Source: a virus
Lineage: Duplodnaviria > Heunggongvirae > Uroviricota > Caudoviricetes
Length of the DNA: 10,858 nucleotides
Strand: one strand, 5' to 3'
Virus record (IMG/VR): IMGVR_UViG_2711768001_000007
Shown here one piece after another: positions 1 to 10,858 of this stretch; position 1 is the stretch's first letter; every line of letters starts with the position of its first letter. Both the position numbers and the translations under genes were made by a program. Under the pieces are notes generated by a model. It was not told the origin of the DNA, searched no databases, and was given only the letters and a program-made list of their open reading frames with translations.

Positions 1-70
1 ATGATAGTTATTTATCATCTAGTGTTCGCGGGTGTTCGTGGTAGTGTTTTGTGTGCATTCATCGCTATGA
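1..70. repeat. Left terminal direct repeat, 70 bp, identical to 10789-10858; putative att core (attL side)
   Basis: Base-by-base comparison shows 1-70 and 10789-10858 are identical. It lies directly next to the integrase and clustered short repeats. It does not look like a tRNA 3' end. Confidence 0.8.
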
Positions 71-90
71 TTATAAAGGAAAATTTTGTT

Positions 91-164
91 TTCCTTGTTC
101 GCTCTTGTTCGTCACGGTTTGCCCTTGTACGATGCACGGTGTAGTCAATGGTGTAGTTAATTTT
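91..164. promoter_or_regulatory. Putative integrase arm-type sites: two 10-bp-phased TTGTTCG decamers (96-115) and tandem 12-mers GGTGTAGTCAAT/GGTGTAGTTAAT (138-161)
   Basis: Same motifs recur at the right end (10661-10717) in the same orientation, and TGTTCG decamers also sit inside the terminal repeat (22-41). Function is inferred from position near the att repeat and int. Confidence 0.4.
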
Positions 165-2052: not shown

Positions 2053-2166
2053 AGGGGAGCATATGACATATAAAACAAAGACGACCGGGGGCGGTCGCCA
2101 ATGGATACACACTAAACTTGAACGCATCACCAACAATGCCACATTTGCGGCTGGTGGGCAATGTGA

Positions 2167-2340
2167 TCAGTCAGATTTGGTTCGTTCCAAGGTTTGCAAC
2201 GAGAGCTTTTTCCTGTGCTCTTTAAGGAATTTCTCAAGAGCAAAAGCACATGGCGCGAATCTTTCTGATTCATGCTCTATCTTTCTGCGCCGTCTTTTCC
2301 GTGCCGGTGATAATGTTTTGGTCAATTCTTTATCGGTCAT
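2167..2340 (-). CDS. Small basic hypothetical protein (57 aa from Met-6; 62 aa if started at 2355)
   Basis: Minus-strand ORF 57 bp downstream of the RHH gene. AGGA lies 7 nt upstream of the ATG at 2340. Lys/Arg-rich (RKRRRRK). No recognised family. Confidence 0.4.
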   Translation of the reverse strand: MTDKELTKTLSPARKRRRRKIEHESERFAPCAFALEKFLKEHRKKLSLQTLERTKSD

Positions 2341-2397
2341 TGTGTTGTCCTGCATAGCAATGCGCCGTAGTTACTCACACCACGGCGCTGATAGTGA

Positions 2398-2595
2398 TTA
2401 TTCTGATTCTTTGGCCTTCCGGCGCTGTTCATATTTTAATTTGCGTCCACAGGCATCTAAGACCCATGCGGAAAAATTAGCACTAGGATTAGTTAATTTT
2501 TCTTGTTCAACGCTGGCATCAATCCCATCTATAAGCTCATGTGGGAATCGAATATTTTTCTTTGCTGATTTGTTGTTTGTGTTACCGCTAGACAT
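2398..2595 (-). CDS. Ribbon-helix-helix (Arc/MetJ/CopG-like) DNA-binding protein; candidate element repressor
   Basis: 65-aa ORF with strong RBS (GAGGTG 6 nt upstream). Segment IRFPHELIDGIDASVEQEKL...SANFSAWVLDA follows the P22 Arc pattern (FNLRWPREVLDLVRKVAEENGRSVNSEIYQRVMES, from memory). Sits divergently from an operator-bearing promoter region. Confidence 0.6.
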   Translation of the reverse strand: MSSGNTNNKSAKKNIRFPHELIDGIDASVEQEKLTNPSANFSAWVLDACGRKLKYEQRRKAKESE

Positions 2596-2622
2596 TGATG
2601 CACCTCACTTAAATGGACTTTA

Positions 2623-2702
2623 TGGGCGCACACAATACAGCAAAAAAAATGAGATGTTAAGTATTGACATGTGCGCACACATGATTTTAATCTGTGCGCA
2701 CA
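2623..2702. promoter_or_regulatory. Divergent promoter/operator region: TGGGCGCACA (2623-2632), TGTGCGCACA (2670-2679), TGTGCGCACA (2693-2702); rightward promoter -35 TTGACA 2664-2669 / -10 TTTAAT 2686-2691; leftward promoter -35 TGTTAA(rc) 2655-2660 / -10 ACAATA(rc) 2632-2637
   Basis: Two perfect 10-bp palindromes spaced 23 bp centre to centre, plus a 9/10 third copy 47 bp away. They overlap back-to-back sigma70-like hexamers with 16-17 bp spacers. Confidence 0.55.
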
Positions 2703-2800
2703 GTTTGAGTTTTGTCACTCAAATTAAGCAACGCCCCGCAGTGCTCGCAACACATGCAGGGCGTCTAACCACCAACGATAGCAAGAGTATCGAGGTAGCT

Positions 2801-3004
2801 ATGAGAAATCATACCACACACCCGCAAGGGCGGGACTCGCACAACCTGAATAAATATATCTGGCGTTTTATCGCCCTGAGCACGGCACAACCGCGCGTGA
2901 TTACCATTGAGGCCAGCAGCGAACAGGAAGCACGCCAGCAATCCCCGGCTGGCTGCGTGATGGTATTCGCCGCCCGTATTCGTCAGGGGGGGTACCATGC
3001 CTGA
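2801..3004 (+). CDS. Hypothetical small protein (68 aa), first ORF of the rightward early operon
   Basis: ATG 2801 preceded by GAGGT (2792-2796). In frame with the 3' end of the long track ORF 2063-3004. End overlaps the next ORF start. Low confidence. Confidence 0.3.
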   Translation: MRNHTTHPQGRDSHNLNKYIWRFIALSTAQPRVITIEASSEQEARQQSPAGCVMVFAARIRQGGYHA

Positions 3005-3323: not shown

Positions 3324-3623
3324 ATGAGAACGTATTTATCTGGCTTGACTGCCAGCGGTTATGCACACCCCCAAATTATCCCCGGCGCTATTTATCTGGA
3401 TAAGAACGGTAACAGAGTAACGGTAAAAGAACTGATGTTTGACCGTGTGTATTTTATCCGTGATGGCTATTCATTTCTTAGTTCGCTGAACGTGGAGATC
3501 TTTATTTGCAGATTCCGGCGGGAAATCCCGACTTCCAGAAATAACCATGTGTCACGTGTGGATGTGGATAAAAAACTACAGGAACTGAAAAACATGATTG
3601 CCGCGTGGAGAGAGCAGAAATGA
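3324..3623 (+). CDS. Hypothetical protein (99 aa), translationally coupled to the replication gene
   Basis: ORF whose stop overlaps the rep start (ATGA at 3620-3623). No recognised motif. Confidence 0.5.
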   Translation: MRTYLSGLTASGYAHPQIIPGAIYLDKNGNRVTVKELMFDRVYFIRDGYSFLSSLNVEIFICRFRREIPTSRNNHVSRVDVDKKLQELKNMIAAWREQK

Positions 3624-5437
3624 AAAAAGCGCCAAATTTAAAACACCAGCCGCGTGACAAAATGACGGAAGTCATCATTTTTGCGGGTAGTGATGCGTGG
3701 GCACATGCGAAGCAGTGGCAGGAACAGGACGGGCGACTGGCTGGCGATAACGTGCCACCTGTCTGGCTTGGAGAGCAACAACTTGCCGAACTGGACAACC
3801 TGCAAATCGTACCGGATGGACGCTATCGCGTGCGTCTCTACCAGGCGGGGTTATTGCGTCCGGGGCTTGTTAATACCATCGGGCAGAAACTGGCAGCGGC
3901 AGGTGTCAGGGATGCTGATTATTACCCTGAAGGAATGCACAGCCAGAAACGGGAGAACTGGCGCGAATATCTGGAACGTGAGCGGGGAGAGCTGACGGAA
4001 AAGAAAAAGGTAGTTGAACTGCCTGTAAAGAAAAAAGAGCGGGTAAAAGACGATAACGCTTCATCACTGGCGCTTAACCAGATGGGAGCAAGTCAACGCG
4101 GCGAAGTTCTCCTGGCACATTATGGCGGTGAACTGGCGATTCATGCCGACTCTGACACTGTTCACCATTACAACGGCGTTGTATGGGAGCCAGTACAGGA
4201 TAAAGAATTACAGCGAGCTATGGCGCAGATTTTCATTGATGCGGAGATCAGCTATTCGCAGAACGCCATTAAATCGGCGGTCGATACCATGAAGTTAAGT
4301 TTGCCTGTAATGGGGAATACAGCCCGTAACCTGATTGGATTCAGTAACGGGGTATTTGATACCAGAACAGGTAATTTTCGGCAGCATAACAAAAACGACT
4401 GGTTGTTAATTGCCAGTGAATTACCTTTCAGCCCACCAGCAGAGGGGGAAACGCTGGCAACACATGCGCCGAATTTCTGGAAGTGGTTACGCCGTTCGGT
4501 GGCTGAGAATGACCGCAAGGCGGATCGCGTACTGGCTGCATTATTCATGGTGCTGGCGAACCGGTACGACTGGCAGTTATTCATTGAGGTAACAGGTCCA
4601 GGGGGAAGTGGTAAAAGCGTGATGGCGGAGATTTGCACCATGCTGGCGGGTAAGGCTAATACAGTATCAGCGAGCATGAAGGCGCTGGAAGATGCAAGGG
4701 AACGCGCGTTAGTGGTTGGCTTTTCGCTGATTATCATGCCGGATATGACCCGCTACGCTGGTGATGGGGCGGGAATTAAGGCTATTACAGGCGGTGACAA
4801 GGTGGCAATCGACCCAAAACATAAAGCCCCATATTCAACGCGTATCCCGGCAGTAGTGCTGGCGGTTAACAATAACGCTATGTCATTCAGTGACCGCAGT
4901 GGGGGGATCTCGCGCCGTCGGGTGATATTCAATTTTTCGGAAGTTGTACCGGAGAACGAACGCGATTCAATGCTGGCGGAAAAAATAGAAGGTGAGCTGG
5001 CGGTAGTGATTCGTCATCTGCTTACACGGTTTGCTGACCAGGACGAAGCCAGACGCCTTTTATATGAGCAGCAGAAATCAGAAGAAGCACTCGCGATAAA
5101 GCGTGAAGGTGATTCGCTGGTGGACTTCTGCGGCTATCTCATGGCGTCGGTAATGTGTGATGGCCTGTTAGTGGGTAATGCTGAAATTGTGCCATTCAGC
5201 CCGCGCAGGTATCTCTATCATGCCTATCTGGCTTATATGAAGGCACATGGGTTTGGTAAACCTGTAACACTGACGCGCTTCGGTAAAGATATGCCGGGGG
5301 CAATGGCGGAATATGGCAGGGAGTATATGAAACGGAAAACGAAGCACGGTTTGCGTTCAAACGTGACACTGACGGAGGAATCAGAAGACTGGATGCCATC
5401 ATGTGTATCGGTCACTAATGACGATAGCAAAAATTAA
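3620..5437 (+). CDS. Replication initiator: D5_N-like region plus SF3-type P-loop helicase (P4-family primase C-terminal-like)
   Basis: Walker A GPGGSGKS and Walker B-like LIIMPDM. D5_N-like segment IGFSNGVFDTRTGNFRQH...LPFSP. Start taken at ATG 3620 (GGAGAG RBS) rather than GTG 3605. Iteron array begins 14 nt after the stop. Confidence 0.85.
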   Translation: MKKAPNLKHQPRDKMTEVIIFAGSDAWAHAKQWQEQDGRLAGDNVPPVWLGEQQLAELDNLQIVPDGRYRVRLYQAGLLRPGLVNTIGQKLAAAGVRDADYYPEGMHSQKRENWREYLERERGELTEKKKVVELPVKKKERVKDDNASSLALNQMGASQRGEVLLAHYGGELAIHADSDTVHHYNGVVWEPVQDKELQRAMAQIFIDAEISYSQNAIKSAVDTMKLSLPVMGNTARNLIGFSNGVFDTRTGNFRQHNKNDWLLIASELPFSPPAEGETLATHAPNFWKWLRRSVAENDRKADRVLAALFMVLANRYDWQLFIEVTGPGGSGKSVMAEICTMLAGKANTVSASMKALEDARERALVVGFSLIIMPDMTRYAGDGAGIKAITGGDKVAIDPKHKAPYSTRIPAVVLAVNNNAMSFSDRSGGISRRRVIFNFSEVVPENERDSMLAEKIEGELAVVIRHLLTRFADQDEARRLLYEQQKSEEALAIKREGDSLVDFCGYLMASVMCDGLLVGNAEIVPFSPRRYLYHAYLAYMKAHGFGKPVTLTRFGKDMPGAMAEYGREYMKRKTKHGLRSNVTLTEESEDWMPSCVSVTNDDSKN

Positions 5438-5450
5438 ACTTATGGAATAA

Positions 5451-5673
5451 CTGTTCACCACTGTTCACCCTGTTATAAATATCTTTTATATCAGTATATT
5501 ATAGGGTGAACAGTTATTTATGAACTGTTCACCAAACTATTCACTGTTCACCTTTTTGATTGTTTATTGAGCTTCAAGGGTGAACAGTGGTGAACAGTTG
5601 GTGAATAGTTTTTGTGAAACTGTTCACCCCTTAACATTATGAATTAAAAGATAAAATATCAAAAGGTGAACAG
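5451..5673. repeat. Iteron-type replication origin: about 9-10 copies of GGTGAACAG / CTGTTCACC in both orientations within AT-rich DNA
   Basis: Copies at 5451-5459, 5461-5469, 5505-5513, 5525-5533, 5544-5552, 5579-5587, 5589-5597, 5600-5608 (degenerate), 5620-5628, 5665-5673. The core matches the TGTTCACC type I iteron of the P4 ori/crr as I recall it. Confidence 0.8.
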
Positions 5674-5724
5674 GTGAAGGGTTAAAACGCAAAAATTTTA
5701 ATTTACTGCTGTGAGATAAAGCCT

Positions 5725-6403: not shown

Positions 6404-6428
6404 AAGCCGGAGCAATCCGGCTTTTTTA
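6404..6428 (+). terminator. Rho-independent terminator-like hairpin after the SSB-like gene
   Basis: Stem AGCCGG (6405-6410) / CCGGCT (6417-6422), 6-nt loop, then T-run 6422-6427. Confidence 0.6.
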
Positions 6429-6497
6429 TGGGTCCTCCCGGTGTAGTGACCTGCCACGGGGCGGGAGCGTCGCGGAAAAAGGCTGGTTTTTGCATTT
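6429..6497 (+). repeat. Conserved ~70-bp element, copy 1 (about 92% identical to 8964-9035)
   Basis: GGGTCCTCCCGGTG...CCACGGGGCGGGAGCG.CGCGGAAAAAGGCT.GTTTTTGCATTTTCA. Internal dyad CTCCCG/CGGGAG and GGTG/CCAC. Differences between copies cluster in the putative loop. Confidence 0.7.
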
Positions 6498-6688
6498 TCA
6501 TGGCGGCGGCAGCATGTGTAGTAATTTATTGATAATTAAAAGTTATTTCTGTTTTCACCTGTACAATATTTTTTTCTCCCTGTCATTAGACCAGTTTGCA
6601 ATTAATTGAAATATATAAATAAATCTGTTTTTCACCTGCCAGGTGGAGTTGCCTGTGTCAAAACGTGTTCAGATGGCGGGATATTTAT

Positions 6689-8937: not shown

Positions 8938-8963
8938 AAGGGCGGCGATAGCCGCCTTTTTTT
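8938..8963 (+). terminator. GC hairpin plus T-run after the capsid gene; terminator-like, and also contains a 9-nt match to lambda cosN
   Basis: Stem GGCGGC (8941-8946) / GCCGCC (8951-8956), loop GATA, T-run 8957-8963. GGGCGGCGA (8940-8948) matches the first 9 nt of lambda cosN GGGCGGCGACCT as I recall it. Confidence 0.5.
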
Positions 8964-9035
8964 ACGGGTCCTCCCGGTGGGGTGGTCTGCCACGGGGCGG
9001 GAGCGGCGCGGAAAAAGGCTAGTTTTTGCATTTTC
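8964..9035 (+). repeat. Conserved ~70-bp element, copy 2 (about 92% identical to 6429-6497)
   Basis: See copy 1. Same position relative to a GC hairpin plus T-run. Confidence 0.7.
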
Positions 9036-9190
9036 ATTCGTCATCATCATCTTTCTATAATGTTGAATTTTAAGTGTTTTTATTTTTGGTATGTTAATTT
9101 TGCTTATTTTGTGTTCAACATACAGCGCGTTTTTTGACCTTTTTTAAAAGATATTTGCAAGATGCATTTTTAAAACATTCTGGAGCGGGT

Positions 9191-10319: not shown

Positions 10320-10445
10320 GACCATGAAATTACGGAAACTACCCGTAGTTTGGGTAGTAAGAGTAACACCCAGATTTTGGGGCTTACTCGCGATACCCAA
10401 ATAAAGGGTATCTGTGGAAGAAATATCGTTTCTCATATGTGAGTA

Positions 10446-10516
10446 CCGAGGGCGGAATTCCGCCTTCGGTTACTTATTGTGCTCATGCACAGGGAGGGGC
10501 GGGTCAAATCCCTGTG
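10446..10516. repeat. Cluster of three hairpin/palindrome elements: near-perfect 24-bp palindrome with GGCGGAATTCCGCC core (10451-10464), TGTGC/GCACA (10478-10491), CACAGGGA/TCCCTGTG (10488-10516)
   Basis: Read directly from the sequence; non-coding. Could be a structured RNA or protein-binding sites. Confidence 0.6.
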
Positions 10517-10660
10517 ACCTGACGTCTTCCGGACTGCCAGCCCCATCGATTTTTTATACCCGCGAAAAATGAAAAACGCTTCACGCTGGTGGGCCTGATG
10601 CCGATAACTGGTTTCATGACTGATAGCCGGAAAATGATAACGATTAAAGCGTGTTGATCT

Positions 10661-10717
10661 TTGTTCGTGGTTGTTCGATATTGTTCGTGGAACGGTGTAG
10701 TTAATGGTGTAGTTAAT
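10661..10717. promoter_or_regulatory. Putative integrase arm-type sites at the right end: three 10-bp-phased TTGTTCG decamers (10661-10690) and tandem GGTGTAGTTAAT x2 (10694-10717)
   Basis: Mirror of the motif content at 91-164, same orientation, about 70 bp inside the right terminal repeat. Confidence 0.4.
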
Positions 10718-10788
10718 TTTACTGTTTTTGACGAGCTTATTGTTTGCAACTCAATGAAAAATAAAGGCTAATAAGCCAAATACTATAA

Positions 10789-10858
10789 ATGATAGTTATT
10801 TATCATCTAGTGTTCGCGGGTGTTCGTGGTAGTGTTTTGTGTGCATTCATCGCTATGA
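10789..10858. repeat. Right terminal direct repeat, 70 bp, identical to 1-70; putative att core (attR side)
   Basis: Exact identity to 1-70. Confidence 0.8.

Follow-up and report, generated by a model that had tools for sequence, protein, structure and literature searches.

Predicted attP of a capsid-forming PICI-type satellite of Escherichia coli, with tandem 12-mers and phased decamers on both arms

Introduction

In KplE1, TorI has five binding sites that share a GTTCG core, three of them 8 bp long, 2 nt apart and located beside the -35 box of int (PMC2951348). Along attL of this element three phased TorI sites are followed by the IntS arm sites and then by the int ATG (PMC2951348), a layout that the K-12 sequence confirms, with tandem 12-bp arm sites in attR. 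Tyr28 of TorI is a DNA-binding residue (PMC3509656), and excision factors in general bind head-to-tail on direct repeats one helical turn apart (PMC7498355). The attP, Int and Vis of P4 are the subject of Pierson & Kahn 1987, Cali 2004 and Piazzolla 2006, to which we refer as they are cited in PMC7286903; the P4 annotation (NC_001609) lists 12-bp arm repeats that flank the core on either side in tandem pairs.

In helper-embedded PICIs (HE-PICIs) a doubled motif, tgTGTATTGCantgTGTATTGCa, has been described in two co-oriented copies, one of them 81 ± 2 bp upstream of the attP centre and the other 132 ± 2 bp downstream (PMC10111431). This doubled motif was reported to be unique to HE-PICIs, and its binder was left open (PMC10111431). 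AlpA of Gram-negative PICIs has been reported to act at its own promoter, in the int-alpA region (PMC10111431), and in the PICMI satellites alpA is necessary and sufficient for excision (PMC10803314). The paper on CP4So AlpA contains no AlpA footprints (PMC5148205).

Here we analyse the IMG/VR virus record IMGVR_UViG_2711768001_000007, a stretch of 10,858 nt to which we refer as the window. Judged by gene content it is a 10.8-kb capsid-forming, PICI-type phage satellite of E. coli, with genes for int, alpA, a P4-alpha-like rep, SSB, a ClpP-protease/capsid fusion and a DUF1441 protein. Our concern is the repeats at its two ends, their relation to integration, and the proteins that may read them.

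Results

The hexamer TGTTCG occurs on the + strand at positions 23, 33, 96, 106, 10662, 10672 and 10682, and again at 10811 and 10821, while exact matches to GGTGTAGTYAAT are restricted, window-wide, to positions 138, 150, 10694 and 10706. In total the window holds 16 TGTTCG against 6.0 expected, and 0 of 200 shuffles reached 16. As a non-redundant reference for these statistics we used a 10,788-bp circle in which the terminal repeat is counted once. On this circle 7 of the 14 sites lie inside a 292-nt att region (binomial P = 3e-8), where they share one orientation throughout and form three arrays with a spacing of exactly 10 bp; a single 10-bp pair of TGTTCG appeared in just 4 of 2000 Markov simulations. 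The phased hexamers and tandem 12-mers that an initial annotation had seen at both ends are both present, far above chance. The set at 10661-10717 that it had named as the partner is a true one, since the 60-nt modules 105-164 and 10661-10720 are 78% identical in direct orientation. Copies inside the terminal repeat are also there as claimed, but those at 23/33 recur at 10811/10821 only because 1-70 equals 10789-10858, so that physically there is one site and not two. Beyond the exact hexamers, degenerate decamers continue in phase on the int side (CGGTTTG at 115-121 and TTGTACG at 125-131) and on the other side (GTGTTGA at 10651-10657), so that each arm carries four helical turns of decamers and then two 12-mers.

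On the + strand, the P arm begins with a decamer array at 10651-10687, in which the degenerate GTGTTGA is followed by three copies of TTGTTCG in exact 10-bp phase (candidate AlpA sites), and continues with two tandem copies of the 12-mer GGTGTAGTTAAT at 10694-10717, which are candidate integrase arm-type sites. An A/T-rich spacer of 67 nt (10718-10784) separates these 12-mers from the core. It contains a weak IHF-like site at 10749-10761 with three mismatches, and the homologous position is a perfect consensus in two groups of related elements (B and C, described below); a search for the IHF consensus at one mismatch or fewer gave no match in either arm of the window. The predicted crossover core, ATAAAT-GATAGTT-ATTTAT on the + strand at 10785-10803, would comprise a C site, a 7-bp overlap at 10791-10797 (equal to 3-9) and a C' site at 10798-10803 (equal to 10-15). 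In K-12 the attB reads ATAGAT-GATAGTT-ATCTAT, a perfect 6-bp inverted repeat flanking the same 7 bp. We infer the cleavage register around the GATAGTT overlap, and with it the core model, from this inverted repeat, from attL and attR, which are the predicted recombinants, and from a base at position 12 that segregates with the right flank.

Overlapping the core is the block of identity between attP and attB, ATGATAGTTATTTATCAT, at 1-18 on the + strand, which is the same physical site as 10789-10806 and in which attB has C at position 12. Six nucleotides from the C' site begins a core-proximal pair of GTGTTCG decamers, 10 bp apart, at 22-38 on the + strand (physically the same as 10810-10826), again candidate AlpA sites. 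The P' arm then presents, also on the + strand, a decamer array at 95-131 (TTGTTCG, TTGTTCG, the degenerate CGGTTTG and TTGTACG, in exact 10-bp phase), likewise of candidate AlpA sites, and the tandem 12-mers GGTGTAGTCAAT and GGTGTAGTTAAT at 138-161, candidate integrase arm-type sites that lie 128 nt past the overlap and 23 nt ahead of the int ATG. The order is consequently four decamers, two 12-mers, the 67-nt spacer, core, two decamers, a gap, four decamers, two 12-mers, 23 nt and int. One further decamer pair, TTGTTCGctaagGTTCG, is located outside att on the - strand at 1703-1722, in 10-bp phase between int and alpA, and is a candidate AlpA operator. Scans of 1-400 and 10400-10858 for sigma-70 promoters found none.

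The int gene (185-1423, + strand) encodes a tyrosine integrase with an Arm-DNA-bind_3 domain (Pfam E = 1.2e-16), a central domain and a catalytic domain (Phage_integrase, E = 1.1e-17). Its product is 24% identical to P4 Int, 21% to IntS and 38-45% to HE-PICI integrases. The product of alpA (1843-2052, + strand) is a winged-helix protein of the Phage_AlpA family (PF05930, E = 4.8e-16) and is here proposed as excision factor and regulator. It is 43% identical to the P4 excisionase Vis, 25% to TorI and 42-55% to AlpA of HE-PICIs, and in the alignment its Tyr27 pairs with the DNA-binding Tyr28 of TorI.

E. coli STN0717-20 carries an identical copy of the element, with yljB/cspD on one side and clpS on the other. 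At least 80% of the element is present in 52 complete genomes, the P arm was detected in 327 of 5426 complete E. coli genomes, and K-12 has the empty attB. The TGA stop codon of the host gene yljB is at window positions 2-4. Rfam and tRNA scans over the full window gave no hits, which places the att site outside any RNA gene.

Comparison of the empty site with the lysogen junctions bears directly on whether the terminal repeat named in the initial annotation is a biological duplication at att. The empty site in K-12 reads gatagATGATAGTTATCTATCATgtggag, with the attB block ATGATAGTTATCTATCAT, and the lysogen junctions read gatagATGATAGTTATTTATCATctagtgttcg on the left and ctataaATGATAGTTATCTATCATgtggag on the right. 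What is truly duplicated in the chromosome thus amounts to 18 bp, one of them mismatched. Position 12 is T in attL and C in attR, the base always segregating with the right-hand flank, and attL and attR together are the reciprocal recombinants predicted from attP x attB. Both the chromosomal attR junctions and the K-12 attB part from the window after these 18 bp, where the right end of the window, past the core, runs into ctagtgttcgcgggtgttcg, that is, into the int-side arm. A contiguous junction of P arm, core and P' arm was found in 0 of the 5426 complete E. coli genomes. Since attL and attR share 18 bp only and the junction is absent from these genomes, the two "ends" of the window, and with them both repeat sets, are on this sequence evidence predicted to be the two arms, P and P', of one attP.

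The segment 10789-10858 (+ strand) would then be a second reading of 1-70, from the overlap at a circular (excised) or other attP-type junction; as a repeat it is absent from integrated copies. Such a double reading is what an excised circle should give when its ends overlap in the assembly. Among related metagenome contigs one (L064) forms a circle whose ends overlap by about 117 nt across its own P arm, and another (L013) has the attP junction on one side and attR with host DNA on the other. The latter was the only other record in IMG/VR with the attP junction of the window, and a search of JGI metagenomes gave none. The first base of the window is also the first base of the attB/attP identity, a start that would fit, too, an assembly graph with a branch point where the excised form parts from the integrated one. 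Tandem insertion was considered as another source of the 70-nt repeat and is unsupported in the 5426 complete genomes.

The comparison of related att regions that the initial annotation had called for was made with IMG/VR loci and E. coli genomes, since a scan of genome contigs with Int gave a single locus. Integrases in IMG/VR are 92-100% identical to the window Int in group A and 76-79% in groups B, B2 and C. The cores and overlaps read ATAAAA-GGACATA-TTTTAT in group B, ATAAAT-ATCGTGA-TTTTAT in group B2 and ATATAT-AACAGCA-TTTTAT in group C, and all three fit the same 6-7-6 inverted-repeat register, placed equally far from the arms. Exactly 128 nt separate the overlap from the first P' 12-mer in 18 of 18 loci, and 22-23 nt separate the P' 12-mers from the start of int across the groups. 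The P-side spacer measures 67-68 nt in 18 arms of the four core groups with no conservation of sequence, to the point that the spacer of one group A locus (L031) is unrelated, and groups A, B and C all retain the P-arm decamers in phase. Arm repeats and geometry are hence kept across four core specificities, with four different overlaps and an arm geometry that is constant to within 1 bp. A spacer of fixed length and freely drifting sequence is characteristic of a rigid nucleoprotein architecture.

The two kinds of repeat vary differently among these groups. Groups A, B and B2 have the same 12-mers, with A as base 11 at all sites, while in group C the 12-mers end in CACT or CATT at all four sites, on both arms and 10 kb apart. 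Residues 28-55 of Int, which form the predicted beta-sheet of the arm domain, do not differ between A and B and carry N28S, R36K, H37Y, S38L and L42K in group C; the 12-mers and the arm domain thus covary, from one informative contrast (group C vs A/B). Decamers of group A read TTGTTCG; those of B and C alike read TTGTTCC, TTGTTTC, TTGTGTC, TTGTTGC, TTGTAGC or TTGTGCA. The AlpA helix reads LTGVCRTTRYELEKKG in group A and LTGLSR(T/S)CRYRLEKAG in B and C, so that decamer type follows the AlpA recognition helix, again from one contrast (A vs B and C alike). The int-alpA region holds decamers and no 12-mers, with two phased units in the window and five or six units of their own type in groups B and C, and in group A the int-alpA pair GTTCG-N5-GTTCG is retained even where its flanks diverge.

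These patterns should be interpreted with some caution, since the covariation rests on three or four lineages that are not mutually independent. Int residues 3-27 also differ between A and B, in the same contrast as the decamers. Within groups B and C the decamers are heterogeneous, keeping TTGT and mostly a C at position 7, and a structural or bending role could fit them.

At the origin, rep (D5/P4-alpha-like) is encoded at 3605-5437 and is followed by nine TGTTCACC iterons. The iteron, (C)TGTTCACC, is the P4 type I iteron, and the rep product is 48% identical to P4 alpha; the nine copies in the window ori are accompanied by zero TGTTCG, a hexamer found in none of the oris examined. Iterons are of the TGTTCACC type with a rep at least 97% identical to that of the window and of the TGTCTACC type with a rep about 47% identical, in any integrase group. 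The locus with the unrelated spacer, L031, combines group A arms (TTGTTCG/TTGTTTG) with TGTCTACC-type iterons and a rep that is 47% identical, and a second locus, L044, has a 97.5%-identical rep and eight TGTTCACC iterons with group B arms (TTGTTCC, TTGTTTC, TTGTAGC, TTGTGCA). Since the iteron follows the rep type whatever the integrase group, the TGTTC pentamer common to iteron and decamer is a coincidence, and the link between rep and att that the initial annotation had raised from this pentamer is refuted by the comparison.

Discussion

Our results favor a single attP with a GATAGTT overlap, in which the 12-mers would be read by the arm domain of Int and the decamers by AlpA, and on the sequence comparisons presented here we regard this combination as fairly probable. 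The surroundings of the core are those of an attP for a heterobivalent integrase, insofar that an Int with an arm domain is encoded next to it, the core is short and shared with attB, and putative arm sites stand on both sides at fixed distances. The decamers in turn have the properties of an excision-factor array, being co-oriented repeats one turn apart, located in the att arms of an element that encodes a winged-helix protein. Their position core-distal to the 12-mers on the P arm is atypical for excision-factor sites. We infer which protein binds which motif, as well as any promoter control, from the covariation and the arrangement of the repeats, and it is by analogy only that the arrays may serve autoregulation or control of the int promoter.

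According to this model a heterobivalent tyrosine integrase would exchange strands in GATAGTT between the inverted ATAAAT/ATTTAT core sites, while its N-terminal arm domain would bind two tandem 12-mers per arm, at fixed distances from the core. The TTGTTCG decamers would be operators for AlpA, the homolog of P4 Vis and KplE1 TorI, which may bind head-to-tail, one monomer per turn, beside the Int arm sites and the core. By bending the DNA, AlpA could help to load the integrase for attL x attR excision and would probably hinder re-integration. The copy of the motif between int and alpA might let AlpA regulate transcription. More tentatively, and with somewhat more doubt than belief, we propose that AlpA may read one decamer code at four places, namely at both arm-site pairs, at the core and upstream of alpA.

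The initial annotation had regarded the phased repeats as integrase arm-type sites or an intasome scaffold. That they are att-arm or intasome elements stands, and Int does have an Arm-DNA-bind_3 domain; the decamers themselves are likelier to be sites for AlpA. If the N-domain of Int bound every repeat, the decamers would be expected in both arms and beside an integrase with an arm-binding domain, as they are, decamer and 12-mer would share a core, as they do in TGT (TTGTAGC vs GTGTAGT), and the difference in Int residues 3-27 between A and B, where the decamers differ, would be explained. We nevertheless consider this unlikely, since 10-bp head-to-tail arrays are a hallmark of excision factors (PMC7498355) and GTTCG is the experimentally defined TorI site in KplE1 (PMC2951348). 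Moreover, Int 28-55 is the same in A and B yet their decamers differ, the decamers are the same in B and C yet the sheet differs, and arrays of five or six decamers lie between int and alpA without any 12-mer. A reversal of roles, with AlpA on the tandem 12-mers and the integrase on the decamers, could draw on TGTAGTC, a string inside the 12-mer that is presumably also found in a lambda Xis site. Previous work, too, allows either Int arm domains or AlpA on the doubled motif (PMC10111431). Tandem 12-bp repeats are, however, the arm repeats in P4 and KplE1 (PMC2951348). Such a reversal is decidedly unlikely also because base 11 changes only in group C, where the AlpA type equals that of B but the Int arm domain differs, and because the int-alpA regulatory region is without 12-mers.

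That the decamers should serve a host factor, such as an OmpR-family response regulator reading direct repeats, or should be a mere sequence-directed bend, is very improbable. The direct repeats about one turn apart with a TGTTC core would suit such a role, the TorR box being CTGTTCATAT; the degeneracy of the decamers in groups B and C points the same way. A host factor would nonetheless demand a constant motif, whereas the motif shifts with the lineage of the element, in the same host species and together with its own AlpA, and decamer arrays adjoin alpA. Turning to the terminal repeat, direct-repeat delimitation of an integrated element truly flanked by 70 bp would also have set the start of the window at the first base of identity, and the core-proximal TGTTCG pair would in that case belong to the host attB. 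This is extremely improbable given that the K-12 attB and every chromosomal attR diverge after 18 bp and that the junction is contiguous in none of the 5426 genomes; a mixed assembly graph of excised and integrated forms would presumably break at the identity block as well. Binding of the replication initiator to the att decamers, linking ori and att, is barely credible: iteron and decamer (TTGTTCG) do have one pentamer in common, but L031 and L044 uncouple iteron and rep type from the att arms, the examined oris are free of TGTTCG, and TGTTCACC is the P4 type I iteron. We therefore retain the model in which Int would read the 12-mers and AlpA the decamers of one attP.

The order of sites is that of attL in KplE1/CPS-53 (HK620, Sf6): core, two sites, a gap, three phased GTTCG sites, arm sites and the int ATG. 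The core-proximal pair of the window corresponds to I1/I2 of KplE1 and the P'-arm array to I3-I5, even the flanks of the sites match (AGTTCGTCA vs TGTTCGTCA), and TorI and AlpA are homologous winged-helix proteins. The two systems differ in the sequence of the arm sites, which are of the GGGTAAAAT type in KplE1, in the location of the TorI sites on attL only, where the window has decamers on both arms, and in the mapped sigma-70 int promoter that overlaps the sites in KplE1 and for which no counterpart is detectable in the window. P4 likewise has one arm pair just upstream of int, preceded by TCCG-type repeats in a phase of about 10 bp, and it shares with the window the excisionase kinship noted above for Vis and the same TGTTCACC iteron. 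P4 differs by its GGGGGCA-type arms, its core in a tRNA-Leu gene and its extra inverted arm copies, and it takes whole P2 capsids whereas the element of the window encodes its own capsid protein. The same layout recurs upstream of intA in CP4-57, the origin of the AlpA name.

Lambda attP has the Int arm sites P1, P2 and P'1-3 and the Xis sites X1-X1.5-X2. It resembles the window in its heterobivalent integrase, in arm sites on both arms, in a 7-bp overlap, and in excision-factor monomers on one-turn direct repeats beside an Int arm site. It differs in the family of the arm domain and in the number and orientation of arm sites, and there is no detectable relation between the site sequences. The Xis sites of lambda are on one arm, and the presence of excision-factor-type sites on both arms is the main departure of the window from lambda and KplE1.

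With respect to HE-PICIs, the window has a co-oriented tandem motif of 12-bp period at matching distances, one copy of it just upstream of int. Taking position 6 as the attP centre, the P' pair starts at 138, which is 132 bp downstream, and the last TGTAGTTA of the P pair ends 79 bp upstream. The motifs themselves differ (TGTATTGC in HE-PICIs, TGTAGTYA in the window), no clear array of phased decamers was seen beside the doubled motif in the HE-PICI arms examined, and the element integrates between yljB and clpS whereas HE-PICIs are embedded in a prophage gene. The doubled-motif geometry that had been called unique to helper-embedded PICIs is also present in a neighbouring integrase clade and in P4, and our data add comparative evidence to the question left open in PMC10111431, namely whether the integrase or AlpA reads the doubled motif.

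In conclusion, the attP layout is of an ordinary, already described kind and introduces no new principle; what the analysis provides is a map, at single-base resolution, of the site at which a common satellite recombines. If AlpA indeed reads its code at four places, a factor induced by the helper phage would couple excision, a block to re-integration and transcriptional activation of the satellite, and AlpA filaments would form on both arms, unlike in the one-armed excisive models of lambda and KplE1. The comparison of the four core groups suggests a rule in which the arms stay fixed, the ATAAAT-type core sites are conserved and the 7-bp overlap changes freely. Such a rule would explain how this integrase family is retargeted to new chromosomal sites, and it could guide the design of tools for site-specific integration.

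Attachment-site architecture

The arrangement at the attL site of the K-12 element CP4-57 (L087 500-660) has the same layout as that in the window: GTCCCG/GTCCG motifs recur there at 10-bp spacing and are followed by tandem 12-mers, TTAGGCCCATTG and ATAGGCCCAACG, together with an inverted copy. In CP4-57 these repeats sit just upstream of intA. Among the related elements sorted by integrase, those of groups B and C (L005, L061-L085) carry a perfect 16-bp palindrome, CAGTATGCGCATACTG, that adjoins an array of 5-6 decamers, the phased repeats proposed as AlpA sites. The palindrome lies in the int-alpA intergenic region, immediately past the int stop codon. A terminator scan matched the core-proximal decamer pair of the window (26-41, read a second time at 10814-10829), whose sequence could also form a weak hairpin with a T-run behind it; this hairpin reading is probably incidental.

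Replication origin and possible late-gene control and packaging features

The replication origin (window 5436-5680) contains nine TGTTCACC iterons in both orientations, identical in sequence to the type I iteron of P4, and the rep protein of the window shares 48% identity with the helicase/ori-binding part of P4 alpha.

Two 91% identical copies of an 80-nt direct repeat with a GC-rich, hairpin-like centre are found at window 6422-6501 and 8958-9037, one ahead of the protease-capsid gene and the other ahead of the DUF1441 gene. Stretches resembling this repeat occur in lambdoid phages, close to packaging genes. The repeat may be a shared control element of late genes. Further downstream, a strong terminator-like hairpin (window 10445-10470) is followed by 84 nt (10491-10574) that match, at 95% identity, the very end of the genome of Salmonella phage ST64B. 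The region 10445-10574 is a possible cos or packaging site.

The gene model at window 2063-3004, a 313-aa ORF, is uncertain. A Pfam search with this ORF returned no match, and the NCBI annotation of the chromosomal copy, which is 100% identical, instead places three features in this stretch: a fragment of a pseudogene, a YlcI/YnfO gene on the opposite strand and an Icd-like gene.

Integration site and putative excised forms

In the host, the stop codon of yljB, a tiny gene, overlaps the att identity block (window 1-4; locus L004 441-528). This stop codon is restored upon integration, and the host DNA from the identity block to clpS is shifted by 10.8 kb. Elements sharing the same 7-bp overlap (AACAGCA or ATCGTGA) are found beside differing host flanks, on the left in L061 and L062 and on the right in L055 versus L057, and therefore more than one chromosomal site is used by one integrase type. 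The metagenome contig L013 (1-300, 10470-10780) has an attP junction at one end and attR with host DNA at the other, and the contig L064 is circular, its ends (1-120, 10980-11098) overlapping by ∼117 nt. Together, these two contigs suggest that excised circles of such satellites occur in natural samples.
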